DNA of 64,000 bases from Blasia pusilla (Eukaryota), in contig CM114271.1 in NCBI GenBank assembly GCA_050084515.1, positions 48,856,001 to 48,920,000 on the forward strand, read 5' to 3'. The notes under the pieces are model-generated. The model was given only the letters and a program-made list of their open reading frames with translations, had not been told where the DNA came from and searched no databases. Each line of letters opens with the position of its first letter. Position 1 is the stretch's first letter. The position numbers and the translations under genes are program-made. This document shows, in pieces, positions 3,001-45,822 of the stretch.

Positions 3001-5439
3001 AAGGATGGGAATCATGATACCCATCATGTCAAATTATGTATGAAGATCCCTCCTAATATGCAATGGAATCTCCGAAATATGGTGCTGATGGAAAATGGAC
3101 AGAGAAGGGAAGAGACCCTTGAGTGAAGTAGAGGAGACAAGGACATTCCACTTGGGTTCGTAGGAGACAAGAAATTCGCACTTGACAAGTTATGTTGAGG
3201 GCATCCTGGACTTCTTTTGGATTCAATCCATATGTAGAGAAGAAGTTCTCTGCCTCTTGATTTTGGAGATTTATGGCAATTTCATAAATAAGCTTTACTC
3301 GATTGTATACGTCAATGAAGCATATGAGCCAAAATTGCATCATCTCATCAATTCTTTGTTGATGTGGGATTTCTCCTTGAACCATCCTATATATGTTCAC
3401 TTTAGGTTTATAATTCGATCGGGGTCTACAATGTCCCAAACTGCAAGTGAAATTCTCATGCTCATGGGATCGCTTACAATACGAAGCTGGTGCATTACTA
3501 ACGGGTGTGTAGAAAGATGATATGGTCTCCTTGACCAAGATTTTCAATTAGCTAGACCCCTTCGTGATAGTAAAATGGCCTTTGGAAGACAATATGGATG
3601 CCAATAACAGGCTTTACAGGTGCGTGCCACACGAGATGTTACATAGTAATCTTCTACAGAAATTGGGGTTAAAGCAAATTTTTGTTTGGTGTGAGGATCC
3701 CTCCTTTAGGTACGATGAATTTCTTCATCAAATTAGGTATATCTTGCTCTTGTCTTCAAGAATTGAGAGATAATGGTGGTACCAACATCATACAAGCATA
3801 GTTGGTAACGTTTTAACCCAGTGCATTGTCTTATGTTGCGTGTAGAGTATGAGGCCCTAATTGCTCGATAGGTTGAAATAAGATCATATCAACCTCCTTC
3901 ATGCAAAGATCCTCTTGTAGAGTTATCTCAAGAATGAGTTCTCCCACGGTGCCCCTTGTTCTCCATTGTAGGAGTTCATCCATTTCTTGTTGTCATCTTG
4001 CCATGATGGATTCTTATGCCTTCCTCAATTGCTCCGTATGGTCTGCCATTATACATCTTTGTCTTCTATGTAGCTCATCTCTAGAAATTGACTCATTCCC
4101 CATGTTCTCCACCTCTCTCTTTAGTCTCTCATACTCCTCAAACAACTATTGATGCTTAATTCTCCTTTAAAATGTTCAATTTGGCTTCCAAATCGAATGT
4201 GCCTTGGGAATTATTTATTAAACTCTTCAACTATAATAGACGAGAAATAACCTTGCTCTTTTCCAAAGCACTCTCTCCATGAAATATTTTGGGAATAGCA
4301 CCGCTATGTAGAGGGAAATCAAAACTCTCTCTAGGTCCATCAAACTCATATTACAACCTAGATTGAGGTGATTCAAAACACCTCTAAAGTCTTCATTTTG
4401 ATTGGATTGGTGGGGATATTTCATCTTGGGCTTGCGGTATCGGTCTCTTATCTCTTCTCAAAGACCCATCCTCCACATCGCCATAATGAACCTCCATGTC
4501 CTTCATCAACTTTGTGACTTTAAGCTTAATGAATACCTTGCTTACTGACTCCTTCATAACTTGCAAGACCATTAAACAAGGCCCAATCCTTCTTCTAGTC
4601 ATCTTCTACCACTTTCCTTACAAAATCACCAATCACAAAATCTTGCCACTTGAGCTGTGACTTCTCCAACTCTGCCTTAAGAATATTGGGGTCATCGGCA
4701 TTATCTAAGTATGCCTTCAATTCATCCTTGGTAACAAATATGAAGAGTTTCTTCTTGTTCATCTTCTTAAACGTTGGCCAAATCGGTGTATCGTTGGGTT
4801 CTTCTCTTCTTCTTCCATCCTCTTTGTTATGAGGACTATGGTCTTCATGAGGTGGTAATTCCATCTTCAACTTGTCTTCTAGGGAAATCCAAAAGGAAAA
4901 GTTTATTACGAAAAGATTTTAATAATAGTGATACGATGATACATCATACATTCGTGATCATTTACAATCATTTAGAGTCACACATTCATATTTTTCAATC
5001 ATGTCTTAAATTCCTTGTGAAAAATTACAATCCTCAAATGGATTTAGAATCACACTATTATGGTAACAAAAATCCCATCACCATACATTTAATGCGTATA
5101 TATGCATGGTCTTAATCTTGAATCTATATTATCTACACCTAATATTTCTGCATCTGCCCTTATATATGCATGTGTGTACTCTAAGCTTTGCTATCAGAGG
5201 GGTTCATAGTCAGTTTACTTTTGAATCCTTTCCAAATAAGTCCAACTAATATTCGCTTAGGCATCCTTGACAGGGAGGTTGTATGTCACATAGTTCATTT
5301 TTTCACAATCATTCCTATGGCATAGATTTTTGTTACTATGCTAAAAGGAATATTTTTATACACTATTTTCAACTTCAATGAAATTTTCCTGACATAATTA
5401 TTATTTTTGTTTATGGGACCACCATCTCTCAGGTGAGAC

Positions 5440-5770
5440 TAAGCACTCATCATCCTATAAGGCATTTCCCCAATCTCCAACCTTGATGTATGCCTCAAAC
5501 TTGGATCCAAAATGGATGAAAGTATTCCTAGCATGAAGTTTGGGTATAAAAAATCCAAGCTTGTAGAAAGTCTCCATGGCAGCACCCAGGGCAACCACAA
5601 GCTGGATGATATTTGATGATACCTTGTGATAGGTGATCTTCTGCAACTCTCCTAAACCGCCCCCTTGTTCTTCAAGGTATGGCATGCTCGCATAGAATTT
5701 TCAGGTGCCCACCATTGCAATACATGTAGATGGCATGTGGTAGATCCTCAACAACCTTCCCATCATGGAA
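5440..5770 (-). pseudogene. Degenerate protein-kinase-like fragment
   Basis: Minus strand reads IYMYCNGGHL (subdomain V-like). After a frameshift it reads KLGFFIPKLHARNTFIHF...YIKVGDWG, resembling subdomains VIb and VII with the catalytic Asp lost. Confidence 0.5.
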
Positions 5771-8429
5771 ACTATTCCTCGATGTCAAATAGTGGCAAAC
5801 ATCCCTTCTCGCATCATTGATATTCTTGAATATAACTGAGATGCTTTCTTCAACACCTTCATGAAATAGTAAATATCTTCATTAAAGCCAAGGGTTTGGT
5901 TATTTTTATAATGATACATAATTTCGTATAAATATGAGCCCAAAGTATAGTATGGATCCTCTCTTACTACTACGTCCGAGCTAAAAATCTACATACATCC
6001 ACGTGGACTACCAACGTCTTTCCAACCGGAGTATCACGTCCCTTAAAAAGGCATTAAGCACTTTTAACTCAACTTTAAATCTTTGTAGTAGAGTTTTATT
6101 TGCAAACATGGGCTTCTCCTTCTTATTAACATATTGATATACACTCTCCCTAAGTTAACATCTTGTTGGGTTCACAATGCACTTGACCTCTTAGCCTCTT
6201 TGGCATTGACTTCACATATCCATGCCTTTGAAACTCTTGCACAAATCCTTACAATTCCAAGATAAATTCATATATGGAATCCATCCATAATCCTAAAAAT
6301 ATAGGACCGTCTCTTTTCTATGGGCAGCTCGAAAGTCTAGCCATACCTCTGTCACGTCTTTTAGGATAGATCGATGAGATCTAGTAGAGCGCCTTCGTGA
6401 GTAGTGGAGGACATGCTCAATAGGTCGAGGATCACCTGCTGAGGCCCTGGGAAACCTGAGAGAGCACATTTCCCCTTCGTTTCGGCTCATTTGGAGCCAT
6501 ATTGAAGAACTTACTATTTTAGGTGAGTACCATTTTGAGTATATGATCAATTTTCTAATTTTGGTAAGTATCCCTTAACCTCCTACATCAGGTCAAGAGC
6601 CAAGGAGGTGACTTGGGATCATAGGTTGCCATGGAGAGAGCTTGGGAGAGAGGAGGGATATACCTCAAGGAGAGAGAGCTCGAGAGCTCATTCTCTCTTT
6701 GTTGAACCTCTTGGCATAAGGCGGCGGAGCTATGGTCTTGCTTGCCTTCTCTATGTAACCCAAGCCTCTCATTAGGAGAGTGGGTTTGGTTTGACATTGA
6801 GAGAGACATGTGAGAGTGCACACATGTGAGAACTATGATGTTGTGAGAGAGATTGGATCTTATTTTACAAAGAGAGAATGAGTGAGTGGGAGAGCTTCAT
6901 GGGGGAGCTTCCTGGTCACTCGCTAGTTTTGTAGGTTGGGGTTCATGGGAGTGCTCACCGGAGCAAGAGCCGCTTACTTGTGATGTTTCCTTTGTCGATT
7001 TTTTGTGTAAAAGAGTGGCGCGCGGAAGCGCTGCCCAATTTTTGATAGGGATTGAGTATGGGGGCGGGTTGCCCCATGTTGGTGCTCTAGAGGGCACCAT
7101 GTAGCTTGCTGATTTGTGTTCTCACATGTTTTACATTTTTGTTGGGAGAAATCGGCGCGGAAGCGCTACCAAATTTTGTGTAGGAGAAAGAGACATTGGG
7201 CTTTACGACAATCCCTGTCAGTTTTTATTGGAATGTTCAATTTCAAATATTTTTTGACGCTATCATAGATCGTGAAGCTATGCACGCTGTGCAATAAATG
7301 GTGTGCAATTTGAGGTGTGAGAAAAATGTTATGATCAATCTTGCAAAACTGCCATTGTTAGGCAATTTTTAGGGTTAAATTGTTCAAACCCTAAACGAGC
7401 TGCGGCGGCGGCGGCGGCCGTCGCCATCATAGTTACGGTCAATGGTCAACCATCACTATCAATGGTCAATTGTCACCGTCCACCGTCCACCATCCACCTT
7501 CGTCGTCGCCTAGCGCTGCTTAGAGCCGCCTTTGTCTGTTGTCCACCCTTTGGTTGTCATTGCCGCCCATTACGGAGTGGAAGGTCTTCCACGACCACCG
7601 TTGATTCGCTGACTTGCACCGCCACCACGTACTTTGGTTTGGCCGCCACCGTCATCGCAGTTCGTCATCAACCATTGATGGCAGGTGACCTCGGGTTATG
7701 GTGTTTGAGTTTTCATTTCATGTTTCTATGTTGTGATTGGTAGCCGCTCAACGAAGATCGAGTACAGTGCCGTGACGCCCGTAGCCAGAACGCGCCGCCG
7801 ATTGCCACGCCGTGCCGCTCGTGGCCGCACCGCACCGTCTCGATTGCGTAGCCGCTCCTTCACTAAGAAGTAGAGTGTGTGAATTTCTGATTGAGGAGGG
7901 TATGCCACCGAGTTCCGCATCCCATTCTCGAGTGTCGTGCCGTTTGTAGCCGTTCCGTGCCGCCAGTGCTGCATCGGATCGTTGGACCTACACCGCATAT
8001 CGAGGAGGTTTGAGCAGCATCAGTATAGGAGGAGTACGACTTGCTGATTGGAGGAGTTGTCTCCATGACCGAGTTGGGGTCGAGATTTGCAGTTGCCGAG
8101 AAGCGACATCGACATTATTGTCAGGTTACCCTTATTGGTCTCTTACCTTGCACCTGTGAGGGATTCCCGGATGTTGGGAAGTTATTTGGGATATTGGGTT
8201 TTGTGCTGATGCTAGGAGCATCAATGATGTATGGGTTTAGGGGACATAGACCTGTGTGGGATGTCTAGAGTTGAGGATGGTTTATCGATGAGACGATGGA
8301 TCGGTTGATTTTCCGCACCACGTTGCTTGTTGTCGCACAACACCCGTCTCATTGAGAGAGTGTAGATTGAGTGCCGCATGTTTAGTTTGAGTGATTGAGA
8401 AATTACTCACAAGATTGAGAGTGATCTTG

Positions 8430-9698
8430 TGAGAGGGGCACGAGGGCCATCACGGCGTCCTTTCGGGATTTTGAGAGGCGAGGTAGTGGACCTGAGAGTA
8501 GCTCTGGAGGATTTACCCGGAGTGGTGCGAGGTTTCAAGGGTCTCCACGTGAAAGACCACCTCAATCTCCTTCTGTGTCTTCTTCAGAAAAGGGGGAGCG
8601 TGTAGAGAAGTGTGTTAGGCATCTACCATACACATTGAGTGGTTCTACCAGTTGGGCGTACGAGATGGACGACTGGGGTAGAAGACCTCGTAGGTTTTCG
8701 GGTGCTGTAGGCACTATAGAGCTACACAACTTCATTACGAAGTTTAGGAGTTGGTGTGACTCACAACAGGCTACGAACTCTAGAGAGTTCAACCCGTTTA
8801 TAGCTTGGAACGGTATGTTTGAGCATTTAGAGGGGGCGCCCATGGACAATTACCATGAGTTCTCCCACAGATATGCCCAGGAGATTAAGGCATGGTGACT
8901 CTACTATGACCCACACTATGTGTCATGGACGGAGCCGTTCCTTGATGAGGAGGAGGAGTCAGGAGAGGCTACTTCCTCTTCCACTAGTGATGTTTTAGGA
9001 GGGGTGACTCGCACTGGAGCTGTTGCACCATCTAGTGGGGTTCGTTCAAGGTTCAACTCCGTGGTTAAGTTCTTTGCTGAGTTGAGGGCAAGCTACTAGG
9101 GGGTACGGACGAAGAAGTTTCGGAGCATCCATGACTTCTAGAGGCACCCGGGTGAGAGTTTGCGTGAGGCTTACACTCGCTTGCGCCGGTTGATCAACGT
9201 CACTCAGGGGGTGACACATGCTCACGCTATCGAGTCATGGTACGCGATGTTGGACCGGACCCTACGGACACGGGTGCGGGAGGGGTGATCCTTATGAACA
9301 CCTCCCTCGTTGAGAGATGTTTTTAGGACCGCCGAGAACATTGAGCGCAACATGGCGAGGAGAGCGTAGCCACCATGGGTTCTGGGCAAGAGCAGTCATG
9401 ATTGTCTGCACCACCAGTGCACGAATGTGGACTCCGAGATAGGTCGATACCGGGAGGCCGTGGCACAAAACCTGCGCCTTCATATGCGGCTCAACACCAA
9501 CCGCCTATGATTACTTGTTGGTCATGTGGTGGAGCCCATCATGAGCGCGATTACACTCGTCAAGGTCATGGACGTGTGCCTCAGCATGGAGGAGGAGATG
9601 GTGTTGCACCAAGAGGTTATCATTGTAACTATTGTCAGAGGTATGGTCATACACACGCCAGGTGTTTCAATTTACACCCCGAGTTACGTCCGGACTGA
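8430..9698 (+). pseudogene. Gag remnant with zinc knuckles
   Basis: Capsid-like RPRRFSGAVGTIELHNFITKFRSWC (ORF 8575-8898) and F*RHPGESLREAYTRLRRL (~9135-9195). Zinc knuckles CWSCGGAHHERDY (degenerate) and CNYCQRYGHTHARC in ORF 9402-9698. Start is approximate. Confidence 0.8.
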
Positions 9699-10499
9699 GG
9701 GCCAGAGAGGGCACCAGAGCGAGTAGCCGGTTCGGGTGGGCCCAGAGATCGTGCACAAGGTGGTCCCATTGGGGGACGAGGAGCTGGAGTTGCCCAACAG
9801 GATGATGGAGCTACCCGTGGAGGAGGTAGAGTCCTACCACCTAGACGCGTCAAGGGAGTCGTCGGGTGTGAGGCTAGGATGGCTGCTCAGATACAATAGC
9901 TACAAGAGCAGATTGCCGATATGGCATTGAGGTTACCCAATGCCAAATCCGTGGCATCGACATCATATGGAGTAGCCAGAGATATGGAGGATCCTGGTTG
10001 GATGTGCGGGGTTGCCCAGATGGAGGCCGCTGTAGTTGTGACGCGTGGAGCAGCCATAGAGTTGGATCCACAACGAGGGGAAGCCACGAAACAGACTAGG
10101 CTTCCTCAATATTTCACATTGTCTGAGGCAAAGAGGACCCCATCGATGAGTCCTAATCATAGTTTCTGGAGAGTTGGTGATGTTGTTGGTGTGCAGGCAC
10201 GGAGGACGATGGGAGAAGCGAGTGCGACGACTCCTATTGTTGATGCTCAGGAGGGGCATATGTCGAGCATGTCATTGGGGGCGGCCACCATTGTATACGC
10301 GCTCCTTTATTTTCTGCTTCCGATGTTATGACGTTGGGAGGTATGCCCGCCGAGGTTTTTCGGCTGGCTGCTACGCTATGTGAGCATAGAGTTGGAGTTC
10401 CTGCATCACGTTCAAAGGTGATTGCAGAGGAGGTGATGGACCTGCCCTTGGAGCGGATGGTGGGGCTGTCCTCGTCAGATTCATGGCCAGCTACGACTG

Positions 10500-10960
10500 C
10501 TAGGATGGCGGAGATGCCCGTTAGACCCGCGATAGAGCGTGCCATGGCTTCTCCTAGTGTTATGTTGCTGGATAACCGAGGAATGGTCTTTGAGTTGGTG
10601 AGTCCCGGAGGTAGAGCTTTTAGTTTGCAGTGCGTCTTGTTGGACTCCGGAGCGCAACCCCTGACGTTGGGGATAGCATAATTCAGAGGATTGGGCTTGA
10701 CGAGAGCCGATGTGGAGCGTTGTCCATTCTGAATACAGAAATCCTTGGGTGGAGCGAGTACCACACAATATATCAACCGACATGAGGTCATGGTGAGGAT
10801 TCGCTCGGGACATCCTACAGATGAGTCTGTGGTGTGCGCCGAGACGATAGTGATTGATGTGGAGTCCTATGACGTCTTGGTTGGTGGAGCAATGTTATAA
10901 CCGATGGGGTTTTCCCTGGATTACTGGGAGTAGTCAACGTCCTACAGACCAGGATGGCAC
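10500..10960 (+). pseudogene. Retropepsin-type aspartic protease remnant
   Basis: Active-site CVLLDSGAQPL (~10630-10660) and second motif SYDVLVGG (~10865-10888), with internal stops. Confidence 0.8.
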
Positions 10961-11349
10961 TGAGATGATGGATGCCTTAGCTCATTACCCGTTTGATTCA
11001 CAGGTGTAGTGATCGAGCCACGGCGAGGAGAGATGGCGACCTTAGCAGCATTTAGCAATGCCATCACTTGGCCTAGTGATTTGATTGAGGGACATGTCCA
11101 TACAGAGGATACTCAAGTTCCTGACATTTCTATGGAGAGGAGTGTAGCTGCATCAGTCCGTGGAGGAGAGGTGCCGCTTTGGGGCTCGACTGAGGAGATT
11201 CGATGCTTAGCCACTAAGCATGTGTAAATCGCGTGGAGCAAGATGTTTGCACGTGAGTGTGACGGGTCAGAGGAAACCCAAGTAGGCAGGAGTGCTGCTA
11301 TGACCCCTTTGAATACCACCCCGATTATGTGGTGCATCCCAGAGAAGGG

Positions 11350-12300
11350 TATGCGGGTGTTGGATCTCTTTGGAGGGATCAGCACTAGGTTAGCTGCTAT
11401 TTTGCACGCTGGAATGCGCGTGCAATAGTACCCGTATGTGGAGATTGATGATATTGTGAGGCGTGCTTCACATCACCATGTGGCCCTATTACGCCTCCGT
11501 TTTCCCAACTTGTTGTATGGTTCTGCCATTCAGGGTTACCAAAGTTCCCTACCGAGGGACATTTCATTGTAGGGAGCAATGACCAAGTCTATGGTCCCTA
11601 CTTGCTCCCATAGACTTGGTCATTGCTGGTTGGCCGTGTCAGTGCCAATTGAGTTCTGGACAAGGTAGCGGGTAAGTTGACACTCGGTCCTGGTTGTTTT
11701 GGGAGATGATGCGGATCTTGCAACATTTACAAGAGCATCAGCCTTATTCTCCAGCATACATTTTGGAGAATGTGCCAATTTTGGGCGATTCGAGGTCCCG
11801 CATGGTGACGAGTGCACATCAGGTGCATGCATGGATGGCCTCGGCAGTGTTATTAGATGCGGCAAGTGTAGGTTCTAGAGCACACCGCCCGCGTCTTTGG
11901 TGGACCAACTTGAAACCACATGAGGTATTGCGGAGGGCTTATGCGAGAGTGGAGCGTCCCTCCGATTTGTTGGTGGATTCTATATTGGATCTGGGTCGTC
12001 GATCACAGGCAATGAAGCACGATGATCAACCATCGTTGACTGTGGTCAATAGGATTGGTAGGCCACAGGCAACCTTTCCCACATTGGTGAGTTTTCCCGC
12101 TTCCTATGCATTTAATGAGGCCAGACTTCGATTAGTTTGGGATGACCAAGTACAGAGGTTGGTGGAGCCCAACGCCAATGAGCGAGAGCGAGCAATGGGA
12201 TTCCCCATAAGAGTGATGGCAATACCGTCACTATTAGAGGCATTACGACGTTATGTCTTGGGTCAAGCAATGGACCTGAACTGCTTGACATAGATTTTCA
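11350..12300 (+). pseudogene. C5 cytosine DNA methyltransferase domain embedded in the retrotransposon polyprotein
   Basis: Motifs in canonical order: I RVLDLFGGIS (~11353-11382); II YVEID (~11435); III RDIS (~11555); IV catalytic DLVIAGWPCQ (11613-11642); V DTRSWLF; VI YILENVP (~11757-11777); VIII SRAHRPRLWWTN (~11874-11909); IX ERERAMGFP (~12180-12206); X LGQAMD (~12258-12275). Stops at 11426, 11570, 11673 and 12291; one +1 frameshift near 11575-11600. Confidence 0.92.
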
Positions 12301-12619
12301 GCTTAGGAGTAGTTGAGCAGCGTCGTTTGAGGATGCGACAGATCACAACTGTTGCGTTGGTGAGCCCCATGCCTACCGAGATGGTTGAGGCAATGGCTGG
12401 GAGCGAGACCCGAGGAGATCGACACACCAGGGGTGATCGGGAGAGACACCCTTGGACTTCTTGGGATTTTTTGCAGGTACGCTAGGAGATGATAGCCACA
12501 ACATTGAGCATGATTTCACGTATTGCACGTGGAGATAAGAGTTCTATTTTCCGAGACGGGGTTGCACCATAGCAACTACCAACATTCGCACCAGAGAGTC
12601 CTGTTGTAGTCACGATGGA

Positions 12620-14050
12620 GACTTGGGAGCCAGATATGGGCCCTAAGTTGACAGGAGGAGAGCAACGTCAGATACACCAGTTCCTTAGGAGTTATAGGAG
12701 CTATTTTGCATTTAGTATGCATGATTTGGATACGCTGAAGGGTCCAGGGATCCGCATTGAGTTATCGAGTGACACGCCGTTCTTTTGACAACCCTACAGG
12801 TACAGTGACATGGAGAGGGCTCTGATTCAGAGTAGGAGCCAGGACTTGGTTGGAGCAGGACTAATGGAGATATCGCATGGAGAGTATGCATCTGCCAGTG
12901 TCATGCCCGCCAAGAAGGATGTGCATGGCAACTGGACGGAGAGGCGAATCTGTGGGGATTACTGACCTATCAATCGGCAGACGAATTCCGATAGGTATGC
13001 CATGCCCATCCCTCAAGAGATCTTTGATGCGATTGGGCATGCAAAGGTCTTCAATTCATTGGATTTGCGAGTCAGATACCATCAACTGCCTATCAGATTG
13101 CACGACCGGCAGAAGACGGCATTTTGGGGCATCGATCCTCACGGAAAGGATTGTTTGTACCAGTGGCGGTTCTTACCATTCGGGTTAAAGAATGCCCCAG
13201 CTGAGTTTCAGAGGGTGATGGATAGGATCTTGGCAGGTCTGGATTTTTCTAGGTGTTATATTGATGACATCGTAGTCTTTAGCGCCATGGTTGAGAAGCA
13301 TGAGCGACATCTAGAGGAGGTGTTTCGACGATTGCAGTTACATGGGCTCAAGCTACATCCAGGCAAGTGCAAGTTCTTCTATGACCTGATTGAGTACTTG
13401 GGTCATACGATATACCTTGGGGGCCTTGGTGTGCAACAAACGAAGGTAGAGGCTATTTCATGCATTCCATGCCCTAAAGATGTGAGTCGAGTTTGTGCAT
13501 TCATGGGATTGGCAAACTTCTATCGATAGTACGTCAAGGGTTTCACTTCGATTGCAAAGCCGCTAACCTTGATGACCAAGGTGGATCAAGAGTGGCACTA
13601 GAGGGATGAGCAAGAGAGAGCATTTCATATGCTCAAGGATAGATTGACGTTCGCGCCCATATTAAGGAGACCGATCAAGGGACGTCCTTTCTAGTTGCAT
13701 ACCGATTGGAGCATGTTGGGGCTTGGAGCTGTGCTTGTCCAGCATGACGATGATGGTAGAGAGTTCATGGTGGCTTATGCTAGTTGCTCGAACAACGCTA
13801 CAGAGGCAAAGTATAGCTTGTATGAGGGTGAGTGCTTGGCTGCAGTGTGAGCTGTCGCACATTTTAGATGTTATCTATTCGGAAATCCCTTTACCATCAT
13901 TACTGATCATCAGCCACTTAAGTGGTTGATGGAGTCCGAAAAGCTGATAGGGAAGCTTGCGAGGTGGGCTCTTTTGTTGCAGGAGTATGACTTCCAGGTG
14001 GTGCATAGATCTGGGACGCTCAACCAAGATGGTTTGAGCCGTAACCCATG
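12620..14050 (+). pseudogene. Ty3/Gypsy reverse transcriptase and RNase H remnant
   Basis: RRICGDY*PIN, YAMPIP, SLDLRVRYHQL, LPFGLKNAPAEFQR, YIDDIVVF, KCKF...EYLGH, FMGLANFYR. RNase H: F*LHTDWS..GLGAVL, EGECLAAV, TDHQPLKWL, ARWALLLQEYDF. Confidence 0.95.
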
Positions 14051-14419
14051 CCCGAGTCAGCAAGATATGATTGGAGCTCGTTGGCATGGTGAGAGTGATG
14101 AGGAGTTGCTGCCAGTATGCCATGCGTCAGCCTATTTGGGCTTGTTGGCTATGGAGAGCCAGATTGCAGAGACTTCGATGGCAAGGTCTGATGGAGAGTC
14201 CTTAGATCCTAGAGGCCGGTGAGGAGACGAGAGGTGGCCGAGACATTCACGACGATGGAGTGGTCTTGGAGTACCTGCATATTGGCAGCGTCGCGAGCAC
14301 AATGGGTGCTAGAGAGCGGGATTGGATCCTACAATGAGTCAGACGGTTCCGATGGGAGGGCGCACATGTGTTGCGAGTGTGGGAGGATGGTAGAGTGCGT
14401 GTAGTGCCTCATCCTTTGC

Positions 14420-15480
14420 AGAGAGCACGTTTGATGCGTCATGCCCACGAGGAGTTGGGTCATTTTAGAGTGAAGCGGACGTACAACTTGCTCCAGATTT
14501 AGTATTGGTGGCGAGGCATGCAGACTGACGTTCAGAAGTTTGTTGTCAGATGCATAGTGTGTGATCGAGTCCAAGCATCGTTCAATGCTCCAACTCCACA
14601 GTTGCATCGAATTCCGATCATGGGTTTAGGTTAAAGATGGAGTTTGGATTTTGCAGGACCTTTGCCTTTGACGGAGCGCCATAGTCGTTATGTGTTGGTG
14701 ATGGTCGAGCACTTATCGAAGTGGATAGAGTTGGTTGCATTTCCTGACAAAGCGATTCATGGAGTAGCGTATGCCTTCCTAGATCGAGTGTTGAGTCATT
14801 ACGATGCACCAGCTGAGGTGTTGACAGACCAGGGTATAGAGTTCCGCAAGGAGTTTCAGGCCCTGTGTGATCAGGCACTGATCAACCACCGCACTACTTT
14901 GCAAGATCATCCTGAGGCGAATGGACTAGCGGAGCATGTTGTGCAGACAGTAAAGAGAGGAGTACGCAAGTATGGCTTATAGAGAGGTCACCTAGGAGAT
15001 TGGGACCTTCAGTTGCCGTGGTTGGCGATGGGATACAGATTTAGCAGGCAGGCATCCTTAGCGTCTTTCTCACCGTACTTGTTGCTTTATGGCCGAGAGC
15101 CAGATTTACCACCGGCCATTCGACGAGATAATGGTGAGATGTTGAACCTTGATGACCCTGATATATGGATGCGAGCATGTTCTTAGAGGGCCGAGTTGTT
15201 TCAGAGAGTGATGCTCATGGCGTTTGAGAACTTGGCGATTGCGCAACATCGGGATACGTTGAGGTATGCAATTATTTGGGGAGGTGGTTATCAACCTACT
15301 ATCTGGAAGTTTCATCAGGGAGACTATGTCTACTTGCAGCAAACGGCACCCACGACGTTGGATGTGACTACAGGGCGTACCATCTTGAGAGTGCGTGAGG
15401 TTTTTCCATCCGGTGTTCTCTTATTGGAGGGACGCGATGGTATGGTTTGGAAGGACCATATGCGTAATTGTGCACCATGT
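14420..15480 (+). pseudogene. Integrase remnant (HHCC, DDE core, C-terminal extension)
   Basis: HAHEELGH...CIVCDR zinc domain (~14440-14565); DFAGPLP, VLTDQG and HPEANGLAEH catalytic motifs (ORF 14644-14982); FSPYLLLYGR (~15067). Confidence 0.92.
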
Positions 15481-15540
15481 CATCTTCCGAATATTATCGG
15501 TATAGTTGATCCGAGCTTAGCAATAGTTCCTGCACGCTTA

Positions 15541-15684
15541 CGGTGTATGTTGTGTGGTTCCGCCCATGGTGCAGCCACTATGCTAGTCTGTGATGGGTGT
15601 TTGAGAGGATGGCATATGGCATGTTTGACGCCATCTCTCACTTGGGTTCCTCACGGATAATGGATGTGTCCCAGATGTACATAG
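15541..15684 (+). pseudogene. PHD finger (C4HC3) at the integrase C-terminus
   Basis: In frame with the integrase tail: RCMLCGSAHGAATMLVCDGCLRGWHMACLTPSLTWVPHG*WMCPRCT*. Full Cys4-His-Cys3 spacing plus the conserved Trp; one premature TAA at 15658-15660. Confidence 0.9.
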
Positions 15685-15866
15685 AGTAGGTAGTTTTACA
15701 TTCCGACTTGTGTCTGTGATATGGATGACAAGAAGGCGACTAACGATGGGGCCACATGAGCACCCGGCCTTCTTGCTCTTAGCATCCGAGAGATGTATGT
15801 CATGGTAGGTAGGGATAGATGGCTATCTGGAGTTAGAGGGACCTAACCACCAACTAAGGGGGCGAT

Positions 15867-15992
15867 TGTAGATATTTTGGTACTTCTTGTCTCGTTGTTT
15901 GGATGCCATGAGTGAGCATGGGATCGTGCGTGTTTGTGTGTGTGTTCGGTGACAGTGATGTATGTTGTGTAGCGATGTGTATGCGCACGACA
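15867..15992 (+). repeat. Short (126 bp) 3' LTR-type segment of the MTase-Gypsy element
   Basis: Starts TG two bases after the PPT and ends ACGACA. Its 3' part (GATGTGTATGCGCACGACA) resembles the minus-strand LTR end at 46656 and sequence at ~20040-20090. Confidence 0.7.
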
Positions 15993-16007
15993 CCTCTCTT
16001 ACAACCA

Positions 16008-19000
16008 TGTTAAAGTCATTCTTGGAATGACTCTTTGCCTCTTGGTTCTATCACTCAACTCCATTCAGTTATCTCATATCCCCAAAGACTCAACATCACT
16101 AAAAAAATAGCTCGAAGGAAGGAGATAGGAAATTTTTCTACACAACCAAAAAAAGAAAATGGAACTAGATACGTATGAATCTTGAGGTGGAGATTGGGAA
16201 GTAACAAAAAGATAAAAATTGGTGATGCTATACACATGGTTCGGTCTATACAAACATGGATGATGGAATGTGGAATCTAGATTTAGGGTTTATCACTCGA
16301 AGGGAATATATGCATGCTCAGATAAGTTTCTTTGATCACCTCCATATTCTTGATGTACATGTGTTAAGGTAAGCCAATGAAACACATCTAAACTAGAGAC
16401 GATGAATCAAAAATCTCAAGATCACCAAACAAGTTTGGTGACACAAGAGAATTCCCCACTCAAAAATCTTCACCTAAATGAATAAATCATAGTTCTCTTA
16501 AGATACAACAAGGAGCGCAAATCTCCAAGTTGGTTAGAAACAAAATCTAACTATCCCTAAAGACACGCAATGGATTTCCCCAAAATTCCTAGCAACCTTG
16601 AAAGCCCAAAGCTCTCAATGCACCAATATAAATTTGAGACCTTATTTGAGGATCTTATCCAACACTTATTATACTCTTAAAGAAAAGGAGGAAAGCATGA
16701 GGGAAATGGGGTCAATATGGGTTAATTAGGGGGTAATCCTCCACTTGTCAGCATTTTGAGGCCCACTTGTAGGCCTTTTGCTTATGAGTTTATGTTTTCA
16801 ATCCATTTTAGGTGTTGGGAAGGGGGGAGGTGGATTCACACCTAGCCTCAACAAATGACAACACACCACATGTTTGCATGGAATTTGTGGGCTGCGGGTT
16901 AAACATGTGTTGAGTGCGGGCCTTGAGAATGAATTGAAGGCTTCCATGTGGCAGCCTCTGATTGGTTGGAGGGAAGGGAGCAAGACGTGGGCCGGCGTGC
17001 GGTCATTATAGCATATCTACACAAAAACCTTAGTGATAAGGTCCTATCTATGCCACCTTAGCTATGTACTAGAAAAATTTCCCTAGCGCTAAACTCAACT
17101 TCCACTAATGGAATCACCATCTTAAGGTTCAATGCTTGGGTTGGGATGGCTCTTGAGTGTCCTTTTGCATACATCACAACATGAGGTTGCTCCATGTTGA
17201 TTACTCGCACTCCCAACCTCTCCATCGCCTTTGGATCTAGGAAGTTGCAAGTTGCCCTTAGGTCAATCAAAGAAACCATGGATTTCCCATAAATCAGTTC
17301 CTCAACTAGAAATAGATACTTACTATCATCTCCTTTGAAGGCTCATCACCTTCCCTCAACTAGTTCCTTGAACGCTCCTGATCAAACACGCTAAACGTCA
17401 AGGCTTTAGTCTTCCTTGCCAAGTTAATGTCCTCCCACTTGCAGATTGCTCTTGCTTTCTTGAAATGACCAAGATCACTGCACACATAAAACCCCCTAGT
17501 GCCACGTTCAATCTAGGTTTCCCCTTGCTTGGAACTTGGTGTTTTTTGATGTTTGAACCTTTTGGGTTCTGACCCCACATGCGGCCGTGTCTTATTAGGT
17601 TTCCTCTTATTCACCCCTCCAAACGGTGCCTTTGACTTCATAATCAGGGCCAACTTGCCTTGCTTCTCAAGACTCATATCACTTGCCACAAGTTGAATAG
17701 CCTTGTCAATGGACGGCATAGCGCTTTATTTTCCCAAACTTGGTTGATGGCATAGCGCTTTTCTCCCTGAATTTCCATTTCAACTTGGGTGGCATTTCCT
17801 CCACAAAGTTGAAGATTTGATTGGCCTCTAACATATCTTCAATCACTACCAATGTCTATTAGAACTTAGTAATGAAACTCGCAATCAAGCCTTCCAACTA
17901 CATTTTCCATAACCAAATTTTGGCTTAGGGAGCTCGATCTTGAGGTGCCAAACATCTCCTCGGTTTTGAGGTTAGCATCCCCGTAATTCGACTCCATGGT
18001 CTTTTTGTCCTTACAAAATTCTTGGTACCACGTGAGTGCATATGCTTCTAATTTCAAAGAGGACTCAACTCCCCACTTGGTTGTTGGCCTTCGCAAAAAT
18101 ATGTTCTACCTTTGTCACCCATTGATTTAGGCGCTTGATACTTATCTCGCCCCTATACATGGGTAACTCCTTCCTCCCTTCTTCCAATCAATACCATGGG
18201 TATATACTAAAGTCGAGCTACATACATTTATGGTCTCTCCAACCATATAATCCATCTAGGCTTGTAGTTGTTTCTTCAATGCCTTGAAGATGGCGCGCTG
18301 AACCTCATTGAAACTCACGGGCATTTGAATCCCCGAAAACTTCCTCTTCACCGGCGATGACTCCTTAGGTTCACCCATTTGGGTGTTCCATCCCCCAAGG
18401 TCTAGTTCCTCCGACGAGTCGCCAAGAGTCTTGGGCGGAGAGTTTTTTCCGATCGATATTTTGTCCCCCAAACCCTCATCTCGATCAAGTAACTCATTGA
18501 ATCCACTTATATCCTTGAAGTCTTGTGAGAGATTCAACTCAATAGGCTTATTATCCACATCCCTCAAATCTCCCTCAAGCCAAAGCGGCTTGAGATCCAT
18601 GACCTAAACCCCTGTGGGGCTTGTCTTCATGTTTGGCCATGCTAATCGTTGCTGCCAAAATTTCCCACTAAACTATTTAATGATTTTCTCTAATGCCATG
18701 TTAGAGAGTCCAACCTCTTCTTTACCTAGCTTCATCTCGAAGTACTCCCAATCTTGAGTTTTGCAAGTGGAAGACTTAGATTGAGTCCCAAAAACTCGAT
18801 CGGTTGCGTGTTTTGTAGGTAGATGCATGAGAAGCTACCAAGTAGTAATCCGATCCAATCTCCCCAATTGCATAGTGTCTCCATAGGAGGCCTCTTCCCC
18901 AAGTCTTGACCAATCTCCCCAAGTTGCTTGCCTACACTGGAGTACATCGTGTGCGCAATGTGCCCAATTCCTGAATGTGTGTCTTTTAGCTCAAACCTTA

Positions 19001-19750
19001 AACACGGCCAAACACACATATATCACGGTGAGTTCATGGTTCAAGGGCTTGAGCGGGTTGAGAGGGAGAGTGTCCCCCCTATAGGTACTTTTGAGGTTCT
19101 CTAGAGAAACTCCATCTTTCCCATTTTCCCCCTTGGGCCCTTAAGTTTGCCCCTCAATCCAAACGTGTTTTGTAATTCGCGAACCGATATTTGACTATTT
19201 ATCCATCAAGATGGCTTGAAAGAGACTTCTTGTACCTTATGCAAGTCTTGGCTCATCAAATGCACCTTGGATCATGGACTTTAGTTTCATGTATTTCATG
19301 GCTAGCACCCATCTTGACTCTCGTTTGGTGTCTCATTGTTGTCTTGCCGCCCTCTGCGTTTTGTGACTAGTCTCGTAGCGTCTGCCCATCTTGACTACTC
19401 GCATGTTCCTTACTTCTTACTCTTGACTTGGCACTTGGCTCCAAGGTCTCAAAACTTGCTTTCCTTGCCTTTGACCCCATAAGTAGTTATGCCCCTTTTT
19501 CACTTGAGGCTAATCACAAGATTTTAGCGGGTCTTGCCCAACGTTAGTCTCACGGCTAAACCCTAAACCCTAAACCCATTCCACTACAATCTCTTTTACT
19601 CCTTACTTGCTCTACTTGCTCTATGCCCTTCCTAGTCTCATGGCTAGCTAGTCTAGGTTTTGAATTACATGGGTCATACCTAGATCTTTCCTCCTTGGAC
19701 CCGTGATCATGACTCATTTCCCAAGTCCCTGCTAGTCTAAGCGCCACAGA
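16008..19750 (-). mobile_element. Decayed Gypsy-type element(s): LTR ~18699-19750, PBS-like site, gag-protease remnant, LTR-like block ~16008-17010
   Basis: Minus strand ...TAACA TGGCATTAGAG (degenerate iMet PBS, ~18688-18698). Gag-like LKLEAYALTWY (ORF 17866-18096) and protease-like VSLIDLRATCNFLD (ORF 17058-17279). A second TAACA-TGGT junction lies at ~16008. Confidence 0.7.
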
Positions 19751-19759
19751 CTTAGCTAT

Positions 19760-20090
19760 TTGCGATGTGAGGGTGCACCCTATGAATTGTTTGACGGTGA
19801 AGGCTTGGGCGATGGTGATTCGCACTAAGTTGTATAATGTTGGGATTGGTGGTGTCATGTTTTATCCTATGGAATTCACGTTGGACTATTGGTAGGAGTC
19901 AGCCCCTTATCCTCGAAATTCGCAATCATACAATGGCTCTTTCAGTCATTGTTAGTGTTGGTGGTGAGCAATTGGCATGGGCATAGTGGAGATTATTGCA
20001 ATGAAATTTTATGATTCATGATATGTGTGTGTATGTTTGCATATTTGTGACAACGATGTATGTTTTGTAGGGATGTGTATGTACATGACT
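19760..20090 (+). mobile_element. Third, very degenerate fragment of the MTase-Gypsy family (protease end plus LTR end)
   Basis: VIRTKLYNVGIGGVMFYPMEFTLDYW*ES aligns with VIDVESYDVLVGGAML*PMGFSLDYWE*S at 10850-10935. 20040-20090 resembles 15935-15990. Confidence 0.65.
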
Positions 20091-35823: not shown

Positions 35824-37777
35824 AGAACAATTCAAGAGTTTTATGACTGGCTCATATGACTCCCTCAAGTCATGTATGTCTTAAAATGACTAGAAATGAC
35901 TGATGACTCATGGAGTCATAAAAGCCTAGTAATCTACCATACCATAACTCAAGTCATTTTAGGATGAAAGACCTAGTCATTCATTTAAATGACTGACACG
36001 TCGCCAAAGTGAATAATATTGACAAACTCTGGTCATATAATATGACGGCCATATCAATATATGATGTGGCAAGTGGTCAAGTATGACTACTTAAATCATA
36101 ACACGTGTCATATTGTATGAGTCAACTGTAGTCATAAGAGAGAATTTTAGAAAAATGACTTCAGATTCAATCCTATGACTAAGTCATGTTGATCATTTTG
36201 TTTTGTTTAAATGACTTTAAATGGTTATACACGACTCAATAAATGACGCGGTCTTTGTGTATGACTCAAGTCTGACTACTTTGTATGACTCCATGCTTTG
36301 TGAATATGACTAAGAACTTAACTATATAATTGTTTTAAATGACTCCATAATTTATTATTTTTTTAATACATATTTTCTTATGACTAGAATCTAACTTCTT
36401 TATGATTGATATTTTGCATGACACGTCTTCATGACTCCAAGATTCATTAATATGACTGCATGATAGATGAATATTACTAGGTACCTACATATATGACTTT
36501 TAAATGACTGCATATTGTTTTAGTATGACTTGGTACATGTTTGGATGAGTAGTTTAAATGACTCCATATGGTGTATATGACTAGAGTTTGGCTACATTGT
36601 ATGACTGAATAATTTATGACTAATATGATTCATATGACAGATTTAAATGACTTCAAGTTATGGGAATCAGAAGTAGGTCTCATGATAGAAGGCTAAGGTT
36701 CTCCTTGTAGAATGTAGCCTATCTATTCATGCATTGATTCTCACAAGGCATCGATAAAATGACCAAAGGAAAGGAAAGGTGGAGATTTTAGTTCAAAAAC
36801 TCCATTCATCAATTGAGAATGCGGTGTAAAAACAAATATCTAATTGGAAACTACTAACTGCCCAATGCAAGAACTAGAATAAAATTCAGTAGTCTTATAT
36901 TGAAGAAAAGTAAATTCAACAACAAAAAAAGTGGTCATAAAGATTACCAGAAGTAATCAACACTAATTTTTATGGAGACTCTGAGATTTCATAGAGAACG
37001 AGTCAGCAAAACATGCACTACTATAAGTAAGTATTGTCTACATGTAGGGATGAATGTCTAATATTAGCCTATGATTTCTTCAAATTTACTTCAGGCCAAA
37101 GTACTAAACCTCCAAGAGCATTACCCAAAGTGTATTGAGGTGGCATATCAGCCTCATTTGACTGCCATAACTTATAATCCAAGAATGCAAGATAGACAAT
37201 CTTAAAATCCGACCGTACCACCCCCGATGGGATATCACTCCCATGAAATTTGTGTTTTCCACTCAAGCCGGTTACAACACCAGTGCCCAAAATTGTCCTA
37301 CTGAGCTCGGGCTTTAGGAGTTGAACCTCATCTTCCAATACAAAAATCTGCAAACCCAAGATCCCGGATGAGTCTTTGGAGGAAAAAAATGCATAAACTT
37401 GGTGTTGGACATATAACACAACACATTATTAGTTACAATTCCTTCAATTGTAATATTGTAGCATTTAAACAAAGTTCTGATTATCATGCCAAGCAAGATT
37501 GTTTTTCTTCCAAGTCCACGTGCATACCTTCCCGACGGATTTCTTGTTGCTTCCTGACTTTACATCGTTGACATTTTCACTCCTTGCAACTTGAATGGCG
37601 TCAGAATGCACTGTTGTAACATGTCTCTTTTTCTTTGGGAGAAGACTCTTTCTCCCCAGCAATAAAACCTGCATAGTACAAAAGGACAGTGAAATAAAGG
37701 AAAAGCAATTTTGTTATGTTGAATGTACATCGATAGAAGGCTACTGATATATAGCTATAATATCAGAGAGAGAAATA

Positions 37778-38090
37778 TACCAAGCTGAAACTTGACATTT
37801 ACTTGTTGTACATAATCTCTTGCTGTAAAAAAATGAAGATCTCTTTGAAACTATAGTAAGTGTAAGGATATACCAAGTTGGAAATTGACGTTTACTTGTT
37901 GTACATAATCTCTTGCTGGAAAAAAATGAAGATCTCTTTGAAACTATAGTAAGTGTAAGGAACAACAAGTGCAAGGAAAGTAAGTGTAAGGATGTACCAA
38001 CCTGGAAACTGACATTTACTTGTTGTACATAATCTCTTGCTAAAAAAATTGAAGATCTCTTTGAAACTATAGAAAGTGTGAGGATAACAA
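37778..38090 (+). repeat. Tandem ~90-bp repeat, three copies, with a further copy at ~38325-38410
   Basis: Unit TACCAAGCTGAAACTTGACATTTACTTGTTGTACATAATCTCTTGCTG...GAAGATCTCTTTGAAACTATAGTAAGTGTAAGGA recurs at ~37778, ~37870 and ~37995. Confidence 0.85.
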
Positions 38091-41000: not shown

Positions 41001-42597
41001 AGTTTACACTTGGCCTTTCCCATGGTTGGCCAGAAAAAGCACGATGAATGGGTCCCCATTGCTATTGACTCCCCATCGGAGTCAAAGCTTGTGTATGAGG
41101 ACTCCATCCGGCATGAGATCCACATGGTAGAGATGGTTGGGTATTGCCTATCCAGGGGCGTTCTACAACTCCAGGTTGTGACCAAGATATGCCTCCAAGC
41201 CATTGGCCTTGAGCGGTAATGCGTCCAGCTTACCTCCCACTTTTTCCTGAATCACGTGCCTTATAATTGGCATGGGATTTGTGGAATTCTCTCACTCCAA
41301 TAGCCTGAGCATATGAAAAGAGAAATAAAAGTTAGTGTACTATAATAAATAAACACATAGACTGGAAGAATCATGTATCCCACACAAAATCTTTCTGAAG
41401 ATGGTACACAACATATCATTGTAGTTACCCTTTTGACTTGGGTTGGATGGAATGTCGGCCCAGTATCCTTATTCACAAATGGAGGATCAGGTACATCTTC
41501 CTCCTCATCATTCTGGTATTTTGAATCTTCAGTTGGCATATAATGTGGATCTTTCATTTTATTATCCTTTAGGCTTTCAAGCATTGAAGGACCTATTAAG
41601 CTCTCCAAGACCTTTGATGTTAATCTCCAACTTTGTCGCTTTTCCACTACCTCTGCCACTATTGCTCTACAACATGAGGCTTTCTTGGATGCCTTTGCTA
41701 GTCTCAGCCTTTCCAAACAATGATTTCATCATCAATCATCTATGTAAGATCATGCAAGTCTCATTTTCTACGAATAAGGAAACTACATGCAAGAAGGAAT
41801 GGAAAACCATGCAATATTATTGCAATTCACATCTCATGCAAGGTAGTGCACTACTTATTATGGGGGAATAGCACCAAGAATTTATGCTGCTCTTCTTTTG
41901 TTTTCCCTTATCTTCCGTGCCCGTTCTTGTTCAATTGAGAGTAGATCATGAAGGTCCTTATCCAGTAGGTCTGGACTCTCAAATCCATCACCAACATCGA
42001 AGCTCTCCAAGTTTGAAGAGTTGGTGGGCGTATAAGGATGTCTAAAGTTGTCATTATCTTGACCATCTAGCTCCATTGTAATGTGCAGAGGTGATGTTTC
42101 TCTCTCGTAAGTCATTGCCTCTCTTTCAAAACCCTTAGATGTTTCTTGCCCTTTTATACTCAAATCAGAAGCAACCACATTTTTGCTGAGATCTACCCTC
42201 TCCATGGCTGCACTCAGATCTGAAAGGTGCCCTATAGAATCTGGTCTACACACACTTGATATATTACTACCTTCTCTGACTATAGATGCAGTGGAAATCC
42301 TACTTTGCTTCTCGTAGTTCTTTTCTTGGCCCTAGTCAAGTTCCCTTGTCTGCCCTATCTTATCCTCTTGTTCATGAGAATTTGCACATTTCCTTTCACC
42401 ACAAGAAACAATACTTTGATTACCATTGATATTATCCTCTCTAGGACATTCTCTACATCATTGGCCTCTGGAACGTCCTCACGACTGGCGTTCAGCTCTT
42501 CGGGAGTCTCCGTCTCCTCTATAGCTTCACGGTCCGGCATTGGTTCCTCTCTTGGTTCACGTCGCTTCTTGGGTTGTTCTCCCTCGATGAGTTCCTA

Positions 42598-45712: not shown

Positions 45713-45806
<94 letters not shown>

Positions 45807-45822
45807 AAGAAAGAAAGAAAGA
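45713..45822 (+). repeat. (GA)n microsatellite followed by (GAAA)n
   Basis: Directly visible in the sequence. Confidence 0.98.

Follow-up and report, generated by a model that had tools for sequence, protein, structure and literature searches.

What does a PHD finger do at the end of a retrotransposon integrase, and what does it mean that the same element encodes a DNA methyltransferase? The question is raised by a 64,000-nucleotide stretch of the Blasia pusilla genome (assembly GCA_050084515.1, contig CM114271.1, positions 48,856,001 to 48,920,000 of the forward strand), referred to below as the window and numbered from its first nucleotide. The region from about 8.4 to 15.9 kb of the window is almost certainly a long-dead copy of a Ty3/gypsy retrotransposon of the long terminal repeat (LTR) type belonging to a Viridiplantae-wide clade, with a Pol made up of protease (PR), a Dnmt3-like C5-cytosine methyltransferase (MTase), reverse transcriptase (RT), RNase H (RH), integrase (INT) and a PHD finger. 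In active members of this clade the finger would bind the N-terminal tail of histone H3, likely unmethylated at K4, thereby tethering the integrase and biasing insertion; on this part of the account, which we infer from sequence, belief and doubt are evenly balanced. Taken as a whole, the account given here is in our opinion the best explanation of the PHD-tailed element, and we lean toward it.

The PHD finger and its place in the integrase frame

The initial annotation of this locus described a complete C4HC3 PHD finger closing a pol frame one codon before its terminal TAG. Read in the integrase frame, positions 15544–15684 of the plus strand translate as CMLCGSAHGAATMLVCDGCLRGWHMACLTPSLTWVPHG*WMCPRCT* (asterisks, stops), in which all eight zinc ligands are present with canonical spacing (C-x2-C-x11-C-x2-C-x4-H-x2-C-x14-C-x2-C, 15544–15678; first Cys at 15544–15546, last Cys at 15676–15678). 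The last cysteine is followed by a single Thr codon and then by TAG (15682–15684), just as described. What the description missed is an in-frame TAA (15658–15660) between the sixth and seventh ligands, where the open reading frame (ORF) 15187–15660 ends; the coding sequence of the finger is therefore interrupted in this copy, and is not one open frame. Upstream of the finger and in the same frame, Pfam detects Integrase_H2C2 and rve. In the window translations submitted to Pfam, in-frame stops were replaced by X; under these conditions PF00628 matches 15544–15678 over its full profile (positions 1–47 of 47) with an E-value of 2.2e-7 and 31.2 bits against a cutoff of 24, which bears out the proposed domain assignment, and the fingers of intact relatives score 33.7–48.2 bits. 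The strict C4HC3 pattern has a single match in the six frames of the window and none in 200 first-order Markov resamples, and for this reason it is not attributed to chance.

The same tail recurs throughout the family. A search with the window INT-PHD region (stops as X) returned 232 near-length relatives, the best of which is 75% identical over the whole query; Calypogeia fissa likewise stands at 75%. PF00628 was counted by eye in 85 of the 120 near-length relatives listed, the other 35 being for the most part incomplete proteins that end before the C-terminus, and is present in 119 of the 120 longer relatives listed. At the level of 50% cluster representatives, 697 proteins match at E ≤ 1e-30, and 139 of the best 150 align to query residue 452 or further, i.e., into the last Cys pair of the finger (residues 451 and 454). 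The strict C4HC3 pattern occurs in 291 of 356 retrieved relatives. In an alignment of the window copy with 19 relatives (A1), ligands C7, C10, C22, C25, H30, C33, C48 and C51 are invariant, and in an alignment of 37 sequences with a mean column identity of 33% (A2) the conservation of the ligands is 90% or higher. Where the window copy has its TAA, the relatives encode Q, R, E, S, D or another amino acid.

Relative P0359 consists of one uninterrupted ORF of 2811 residues and contains two CCHC zinc knuckles upstream of the protease, the protease itself, the DNMT domain (residues 1380–1481), RT (1845–2008), RNase H, INT and a PHD finger (2765–2808), which stops three residues short of the ORF end. 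The window is colinear with P0359 and with P0131 by tblastn and Pfam. Absence of the PHD from intact copies, or its loss of frame there, had been named as an outcome that would speak against the proposal; intact relatives, including P0359, keep the finger in frame. Thus, the PHD finger is the normal C-terminal end of the integrase in this clade and not a peculiarity of the window copy.

The named relatives are sequences of the liverworts Calypogeia fissa, Marchantia polymorpha and Riccia sorocarpa, of Sphagnum fallax, of Klebsormidium nitens (48–51% identity) and of the chlorophytes Haematococcus, Pleodorina, Tetrabaena and Chromochloris; the charophyte Coleochaete scutata is represented by a transcript, P0121, at 67% identity. 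Judged by these likenesses, the window would probably be assigned to a bryophyte-like genome. A metagenome scan for related DNA yielded only two loci, L001 and L002, both degraded: L001 has a frameshift within the PHD, and L002 ends after the first Cys pair of the finger, repeating at the DNA level the order PR-DNMT-RT-RH-INT-PHD(start). No element-borne terminal repeats were found in L001 or L002, whose repeats are a nested insertion and a tandem array. In L001, an insertion of about 0.9 kb lies inside RT (750–1650), and its second copy at 6697–8412 of the same locus makes it a nested repeat.

These data also bear on the possibility that the stretch does not belong to a retroelement at all, being instead a PHD gene of the host, or a domesticated one, or else a Cys/His pattern that arose by chance beside a transposon. 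Two Marchantia gene models, P0025 and P0089, are indeed annotated as PHD-type domain proteins; however, the Marchantia models are assembled from protease, MTase and INT-PHD parts of one and the same element. Moreover, finger and integrase share one frame and adjoin each other, both in the window and in hundreds of relatives, among them single gag-to-PHD ORFs, while the window copy carries 21 stops and the pattern appeared in 0 of the 200 resamples. With the shared integrase frame, the family-wide PHD, the intact ORF of P0359 and the resampling all opposed to it, this reading is barely credible and can be considered refuted for practical purposes.

A separate observation concerns the sequence beyond the finger. 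In 203 of the 291 PHD-bearing relatives the protein extends more than 100 residues past it, and Pfam finds nothing in the extensions of P0159 and P0163.

Architecture and decay of the element

On the plus strand the element has the order gag-PR-Dnmt3-like MTase-RT-RNase H-INT-PHD, with the following parts:

8425–9665, plus strand: putative gag/nucleocapsid, by position and motif only; contains ORF 8425–8898
9516–9554 and 9624–9665, plus strand: zinc knuckles in the gag region, the first degenerate and the second an intact CCHC (motif search)
10502–11191, plus strand: aspartic protease region, broken by stops, with active-site motif LLDSGAQP at 10637–10660 (tblastn with residues 963–1176 of P0359)
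11342–12419, plus strand: Dnmt3-like C5-cytosine MTase with in-frame stops and a frame change near 11590 (Pfam PF00145, motifs)
12609–14204, plus strand: reverse transcriptase (YIDD at 13257–13268) and RNase H, with 6 in-frame stops (Pfam, tblastn)
14212–15543, plus strand: integrase with 5 in-frame stops; H2C2 at about 14419–14577, rve core at about 14632–14898, and a C-terminal region up to the PHD (Pfam)
15544–15684, plus strand: C4HC3 PHD finger, C-terminus of the integrase (motif, Pfam PF00628, alignment A1)
15735–15863, plus strand: 3' non-coding stretch of the element (blastn, 75% identity to positions 4037–4159 of metagenome locus L001)

Pfam places DNA_methylase (PF00145), RVT_1, RT_RNaseH, Integrase_H2C2, rve and PHD in this order on the plus strand, with E-values of 8.2e-25 for RVT_1, 7.7e-33 for RT_RNaseH, 3.5e-27 for RT_RNaseH_2, 4.4e-15 for Integrase_H2C2 and 4.6e-9 for rve. 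The Ty3/gypsy order PR-RT-RNase H-INT is thus present, with the MTase inserted between PR and RT. The CCHC knuckle at 9624–9665 and the LLDSGAQP motif are signatures of gypsy-type gag and protease, respectively; the Pfam scan of the window at E ≤ 0.01 reported no gag family. A purine-rich AAGGGGG tract at about 15857–15863, spotted by eye, may be a candidate polypurine tract. No second copy of the element is found within the window.

The initial annotation treated pol as one frame. This does not hold, in that 21 in-frame stops lie between 10847 and 15681 and the Pol frame changes twice, from 2 to 3 near 11590 and from 3 to 1 near 14205. The window copy is a decayed relic. Because TAA 15658–15660 cuts the PHD and stops occur throughout the rest of Pol, neither a targeting nor a methylating function can operate in it, and the suggestion that this element directs its integration and then methylates itself or its target fails for the copy at hand. 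The six stops in the INT-PHD part, read from alignments with the closest relatives, align with Gln in four cases, Arg in one and Tyr in one; these replacements fit the C-to-T decay that would be expected of a methylated, long-silent element.

No LTRs or direct repeats were found around the copy by a repeat finder, by self-blastn, by sensitive blastn of 4000–8600 against 15600–20000, or by a search with the putative start of the 3' LTR. The copy may be truncated or too decayed for LTRs to be recognised. The lack of recognisable LTRs, by which the ends and the age of the element would be fixed, is a drawback for our interpretation.

As regards base composition, the coding strand of 8400–15684 is G-rich (2203 G vs 1498 C, GC skew about +0.2). 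The observed/expected ratio of CpG in the same region is 0.70 (flanks, 0.52–0.58), and CpA is over-represented (1.40).

The finger as a putative histone reader

If the PHD is a regular part of the integrase, the question becomes what it binds. A profile built from 20 family PHD fingers matches solved structures with E-values from 3e-22 to 2e-10 among the 60 best, including CHD4, KMT2C/D, Lid/KDM5A/B, WSTF, ATXR5, PHF12, DPF3/DPF2, BAZ2A/B, KAT6A/B, PHF21A (BHC80), UHRF1 and AIRE; no ING, BPTF, TAF3 or PYGO chain is present among these 60. The family finger is 38–47% identical to PHDs solved with H3 peptides. In alignment A1, L20, D23, P36 and W46 of the finger reach a conservation of 90% or more, and P42 and G44 do not vary.

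A structure model was obtained with AlphaFold (AF2) for a relative, P0031, rather than for the window copy. Its confident parts are the PHD finger, with a predicted local distance difference test (pLDDT) score of 81–91, and the preceding five-strand barrel (residues 150–200); the integrases of Ty3 (7q5b_B) and prototype foamy virus (PFV) are among the Foldseek matches of the model. As modelled, the P0031 finger has the PHD fold: Foldseek superposes it on the ATXR5 PHD-H3 complex with a template modelling (TM) score of 0.85 and a root mean square deviation (rmsd) of 1.7 Å, and on the fingers of DPF2, DPF3 and BAZ2 with an rmsd of 0.5–1.3 Å. Further matches are BAZ2A "in complex with unmodified H3K4 histone peptide", UHRF1 "with unmodified H3 N-terminal tail" and BHC80. 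The Tudor-PHD tandems PHF1, MTF2 and UHRF1 are also returned.

Readers of H3K4me3, such as ING and BPTF, carry a cage Trp two residues before the His ligand. At this position the family has no Trp, the window copy and its relatives reading G-W-H, G-Y-H or A-W-H. Because of the likeness to solved PHDs and the Gly at the position of the cage Trp, the family finger is most likely of the type that binds the unmodified H3 tail (H3K4me0 type), and not an aromatic-cage reader of H3K4me3.

The same evidence bears on the contrary possibility, in which the finger recognises H3K4me3 and directs integration toward active promoters, where Tf1 or murine leukaemia virus (MLV) are led by other means. In favour of it one may cite the general point, made in the initial annotation, that PHD fingers read the state of H3K4, and a preprint according to which some PHDs borne by transposable elements (TEs) are related to the H3K4me-binding finger of PYGO (10.1101/2021.11.30.470311). 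However, neither the 60 best solved relatives nor the listed Foldseek matches include ING, BPTF, TAF3 or PYGO, and Gly occupies the cage-Trp position in G-W-H. In addition, a PHD-bearing Gypsy of Chlamydomonas is described as preferring intergenic sites (PMC9940879). We consider an H3K4me3 reader highly improbable.

The position of the finger offers an analogy with chromoviruses, in that it sits where these carry the chromodomain, after the C-terminal β-barrel of the integrase and at the end of Pol. According to papers citing Gao et al. 2008, chromoviruses such as MAGGY likewise have a small histone-tail reader in this place, which is presumed to tether them to a chromatin state. They differ in that their reader is a chromo barrel and not a zinc-bound PHD, and in that it recognizes H3K9me, whereas the ligand here is likely the unmodified H3 N-terminus. 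By this logic, applied to a different mark, the PHD of active members would hold the complex of integrase and cDNA on nucleosomes with unmethylated H3K4. Such tethering, away from promoters marked with H3K4me3, would bias insertion toward silent or intergenic chromatin.

A conventional chromovirus tail elsewhere in the window had been offered as a contrast. Its domains are indeed found, SH3_Tf2-1 with an E-value of 6.3e-7 and Chromo (PF00385) with 1.9e-10, although they lie on the minus strand, at about 58185–58592, as an isolated tail with in-frame stops. Nothing was found on the plus strand of the same interval, and no integrase core was detected upstream of the tail on the minus strand of 55000–64000. 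Conversely, the three plus frames of the PHD element have no Pfam match to Chromo. The claim that the PHD stands in place of a chromodomain thus holds for its position and goes no further.

Several points weigh against the finger as a reader of the H3K4me0 type that takes over the task of a chromodomain. Between the family tail profile and the chromovirus tail of the window, hhalign finds no relation (probability 0.4%), so that replacement of a chromodomain stands as a positional analogy. Pfam does not detect SH3_Tf2-1/GPY-F (PF24626) in seven relatives even at E ≤ 1, as against the five-strand barrel that the P0031 model does show. The AF2 model of P0031 is weak overall (mean pLDDT 62.8; predicted TM score, pTM, 0.33). 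The assignment of specificity rests on likeness to solved PHDs together with the ligands of those PHDs, and several of the near matches read other features: H3K14 acylation in the case of DPF and KAT6A, H3R2 in the case of UHRF1 and H4 in the case of KMT2D. Finally, the liverwort-like members, the window copy among them, have lost most of the acidic residues that precede the "ML-CD" motif in chlorophyte members, and this loss could weaken or alter binding of the tail.

The scarcity of acidic residues in the closest liverwort-like members would also suit a finger that is not a histone reader but a zinc module, which binds a host protein or nucleic acid, stabilises the integrase multimer or serves nuclear import. 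PHD fingers are versatile. Craig et al. speak of "chromatin remodeling", not of tail reading, in the text available (PMC9940879). On the other hand, the features of H3-tail-binding PHDs are kept, including the conserved L20, D23, P36 and W46 and the invariant P42 and G44, and both the identity to PHDs solved with H3 peptides and the profile E-values, down to 3e-22, argue against a mere zinc module. We regard this alternative as unlikely and return to the histone reader as the preferred reading.

The methyltransferase, neighbouring sequences and known systems

The element encodes a C5 MTase, as the initial annotation had proposed: PF00145 matches with an E-value of 1.9e-7 and 31.3 bits against a cutoff of 22, and the closest solved relatives of the domain are DNMT3A chains (E-value 5.7e-7). 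Frame 2 contains what we take to be motif I (11360–11383), and frame 3 what we take to be motifs IV (IAGWPCQ, 11622–11642), VI (ILENVP, 11760–11777), VIII (11871–11909) and X (12177–12206), the numbers following DNMT nomenclature. Pfam finds no ADD or PWWP partner of the MTase in the element or in the relatives scanned.

Does the enzyme regularly accompany the finger? Among the 121 retrieved proteins that contain RT together with INT, the PHD pattern occurs in 113; local phmmer with three MTase regions as queries detects homology to the MTase region in at least 84, and 80 proteins combine it with the PHD pattern. The suggested co-occurrence is thus widespread in the family. Two points count against taking these figures at face value: the MTase queries contain linker sequence, and in precomputed Pfam annotation no more than 19 of the 120 long relatives have PF00145. 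In Pfam spot checks, PF00145 was above cutoff in 6 of 8 proteins. Strict MTase patterns (PC[QTS], E[NQ]V) are unfit for counting, since other versions (ECQ, ENT) occur among the relatives and the domain is cut at its N-terminal side in some proteins. Among the 37 RT+INT proteins without MTase homology, 35 begin less than 220 residues before RT and are uninformative as to an upstream MTase. The long N-termini of P0309 and P0330, both with a PHD, contain no detectable MTase region. A word-filtered database search started from the MTase region gave six matches, all six with INT and PHD.

The MTase occupies two positions in the family. In the window, P0131, P0359 and L002 the arrangement is MTase-RT-RH-INT-PHD, with the PHD at the very end; in P0159, P0163, P0235 and P0182 it is RT-RH-MTase-INT-PHD, followed by a long C-terminal extension. 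Among the 84 MTase-bearing RT+INT proteins, 4 have the domain before RT and 80 between RH and INT. The MTases of the two arrangements are 30–33% identical and have unusual motifs in common. In a FastTree phylogeny of the INT-to-PHD region (128 tips, midpoint-rooted without an outgroup, so that the root is arbitrary), the window copy groups with Coleochaete-like sequences and those of the P0002 cluster. Its clade holds all proteins with the MTase before RT, plus one exception, P0358, scored as having it between RH and INT; the remainder of the tree is almost wholly of the RH-MTase-INT arrangement. The simplest reading of this outgroup-free tree is that the PHD, and probably the MTase, are older than the split of the two arrangements. 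As a side observation, P0159 has a sub-cutoff G-patch match between MTase and INT.

The initial annotation saw in the element a self-contained epigenetic module. Across the family, reader and writer do travel together. In the window arrangement, however, more than 1000 residues separate the MTase from the PHD, and the idea fits RH-MTase-INT-PHD better. Because RT, RH and INT lie between them, and given the usual processing of Pol, MTase and PHD of the window arrangement would be separate proteins; a single reader-writer protein is plausible only for RH-MTase-INT-PHD. We tentatively propose, with doubt outweighing belief, that the Dnmt3-like domain, if it has its predicted activity, acts on its own, its substrate being either the reverse-transcribed cDNA or the newly inserted copy.

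Alternatively, the PHD might serve the MTase and not integration, recruiting or licensing the Dnmt3-like enzyme on H3K4-unmethylated nucleosomes in the manner of an ADD domain, with methylation of the new copy or its surroundings as the result. The lack of a Pfam-detectable ADD or PWWP in a Dnmt3-like enzyme would leave room for such a partner; 80 of the 84 MTase-bearing RT+INT relatives have the MTase directly upstream of INT-PHD, which makes one mature DNMT-INT-PHD protein conceivable; and the nearest PHDs are of the H3K4me0 type, as is ADD. Nevertheless, the window MTase lies before RT, far from the finger; in all relatives the PHD is contiguous with the C-terminal barrel of the integrase; P0309 and P0330 have a PHD and no detectable MTase region; and the activity of the enzyme is only predicted. 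A finger devoted to the MTase therefore has little likelihood in our view, and tethering of the integrase remains the function that we favour.

Other sequences of the window are of separate interest. At about 53300–54200 of the plus strand, matches to G-patch (E-value 2.9e-14) and DUF4187 (E-value 1.8e-6, just below cutoff) lie some 220 residues apart in one frame; the fragment is host-like and resembles a GPATCH11-like gene, with neighbouring exons probably in other frames. A direct repeat of about 890 bp (42595–43484 and 43772–44689, plus strand; 88–92% identity, spacing about 1.18 kb) may represent either the two LTRs of a small element or a tandem duplication. Weak protein matches to the protease-side N-terminus of Marchantia P0025, at 19812–19910 on the plus strand (E-value 3e-6) and 47612–48124 on the minus strand (6e-8), suggest further decayed fragments of related Gypsy elements. 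Short tandem-repeat arrays occupy 37775–38455 and 45714–45825 (self-blastn identity 80–93%).

How does the element compare with systems already described? According to papers that cite Perez-Alegre et al. 2005, REM1 of Chlamydomonas is reportedly a PHD-carrying Gypsy. The Dnmt3-carrying Gypsy of Klebsormidium nitens, KnitGypsy-Dnmt3, has been presented as the product of a capture that was independent and confined to its lineage (de Mendoza et al. 2018, PMC5890265). Like the window element, it is of Gypsy type and has an intronless Dnmt3-related C5-MTase inside Pol. K. nitens proteins with INT and a C-terminal PHD (P0030 and P0076) are 48–51% identical to the window INT-PHD and may belong to KnitGypsy-Dnmt3; the main text of that paper does not mention a PHD, which Fig. 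4c and the supplements may show. The differences are that KnitGypsy-Dnmt3 is specific to K. nitens in the paper, whereas the family described here extends from chlorophytes to liverworts with two MTase positions, and that the legend of Fig. 4c gives it a DIRS-like layout of terminal repeats, whereas no repeats of any arrangement were detected around the window copy. The same authors propose that TE-borne DNMTs of other elements act on cDNA. It should be noted that the isolated MTase domain of KnitGypsy-Dnmt3 produced no methylation in yeast, a result that the authors call inconclusive (PMC5890265) and that, as far as it goes, counts against the proposed activity.

The second point of comparison is Gypsy-7a_cRei of Chlamydomonas, an active Gypsy with a PHD in Gag-Pol, for which 86 new insertions were recorded, intergenic 2.6 times more often than expected; Craig et al. 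suggest that the PHD may serve targeted insertion or minimise harmful insertions (Craig et al. 2022, PMC9940879). Compared by description only, it resembles the window element as a green-lineage Gypsy whose Gag-Pol has an accessory PHD; it differs in that no MTase is among its listed domains and in that the figure legend puts the PHD before INT, so that the position may not be the same. More generally, the PHD has been called "a common accessory domain" of C. reinhardtii TEs (Craig et al. 2021), many retrotransposons are said to have PHDs that can read histone tails (de Mendoza et al. 2019), and PHD and Chromo are reported as the readers most often fused to TE domains (Grau-Bove et al., 10.1101/2021.11.30.470311).

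Pairing of a reader with a writer also has a precedent in EpiLTRs and DAM-LTRs, LTR retrotransposons that combine DNA MTase domains with a histone reader and are termed "epigenetic toolkits" (10.64898/2026.05.21.726589). The EpiLTRs of Cymbomonas and Euglena contain an adenine MTase, a DNMT4-like cytosine MTase and a chromodomain, as compared with the Dnmt3-like MTase and PHD of the present family. After the INT-PHD of P0103 (Chromochloris zofingiensis), residues 612–645 weakly match the D12-class N6-adenine MTases (E-value 0.0027, 17.9 bits against a cutoff of 22). This match hints at the presence of an adenine MTase, as in DAM-LTRs, in some PHD-tailed Gypsy elements, and at an overlap of EpiLTRs and DAM-LTRs with the PHD-tailed group. 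Cellular DNMT3, for its part, likewise combines a Dnmt3-type catalytic domain with a non-cage PHD-type zinc finger in one gene product; there the finger is an ADD, whereas here it is a single canonical PHD, nearest to CHD4 and KDM5, that sits on the integrase and not on the MTase, and PWWP is lacking.

Dnmt3-carrying Gypsy in Klebsormidium and PHD-carrying Gypsy in Chlamydomonas are thus separately in print, as are the general ideas that TE-borne PHD or chromo readers guide insertion and that TE-borne DNMTs methylate their own cDNA. In the main text of REXdb, which classifies plant Gypsy lineages, neither a PHD nor a methyltransferase comes up (PMC6317226), and the available text of PMC9998398, PMC12344493, PMC11982613 and PMC8226300 describes no PHD-tailed DNMT Gypsy. 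No description of a Dnmt3-plus-PHD Gypsy clade across green plants was found in a search that largely left aside subscription papers, Repbase reports and supplements. Within this large family, of which only part has been described, the window copy itself is unremarkable and adds nothing functional.

A bolder reading of this family, which strikes us as decidedly doubtful, would make the PHD-tailed, Dnmt3-carrying Gypsy elements of chlorophytes, charophytes and bryophytes one ancient clade, in which an H3K4me0-type PHD does the job of the chromodomain. The Dnmt3-like enzyme would have been acquired early and later moved within Pol, and the RH-DNMT-INT-PHD arrangement would rebuild on the integrase the reader-plus-writer logic of cellular DNMT3, picking H3K4-unmethylated chromatin, inserting there and methylating the new copy. 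If true, this would amount to a self-contained way to hide in, or to seed, silent chromatin.

How retrotransposons choose their sites and how they handle host silencing are central questions of genome biology, for which the chromodomain is the textbook TE-borne histone reader. The family described here would represent a second widespread solution of the green lineage, a non-cage PHD on the integrase that is regularly paired with a Dnmt3-type MTase. If these elements form one old clade, the DNMT capture in Klebsormidium, published as lineage-specific, would have to be seen more broadly, and liverworts, Klebsormidium and Chlamydomonas would be tractable systems in which the reading and writing of epigenetic marks by TEs can be studied.

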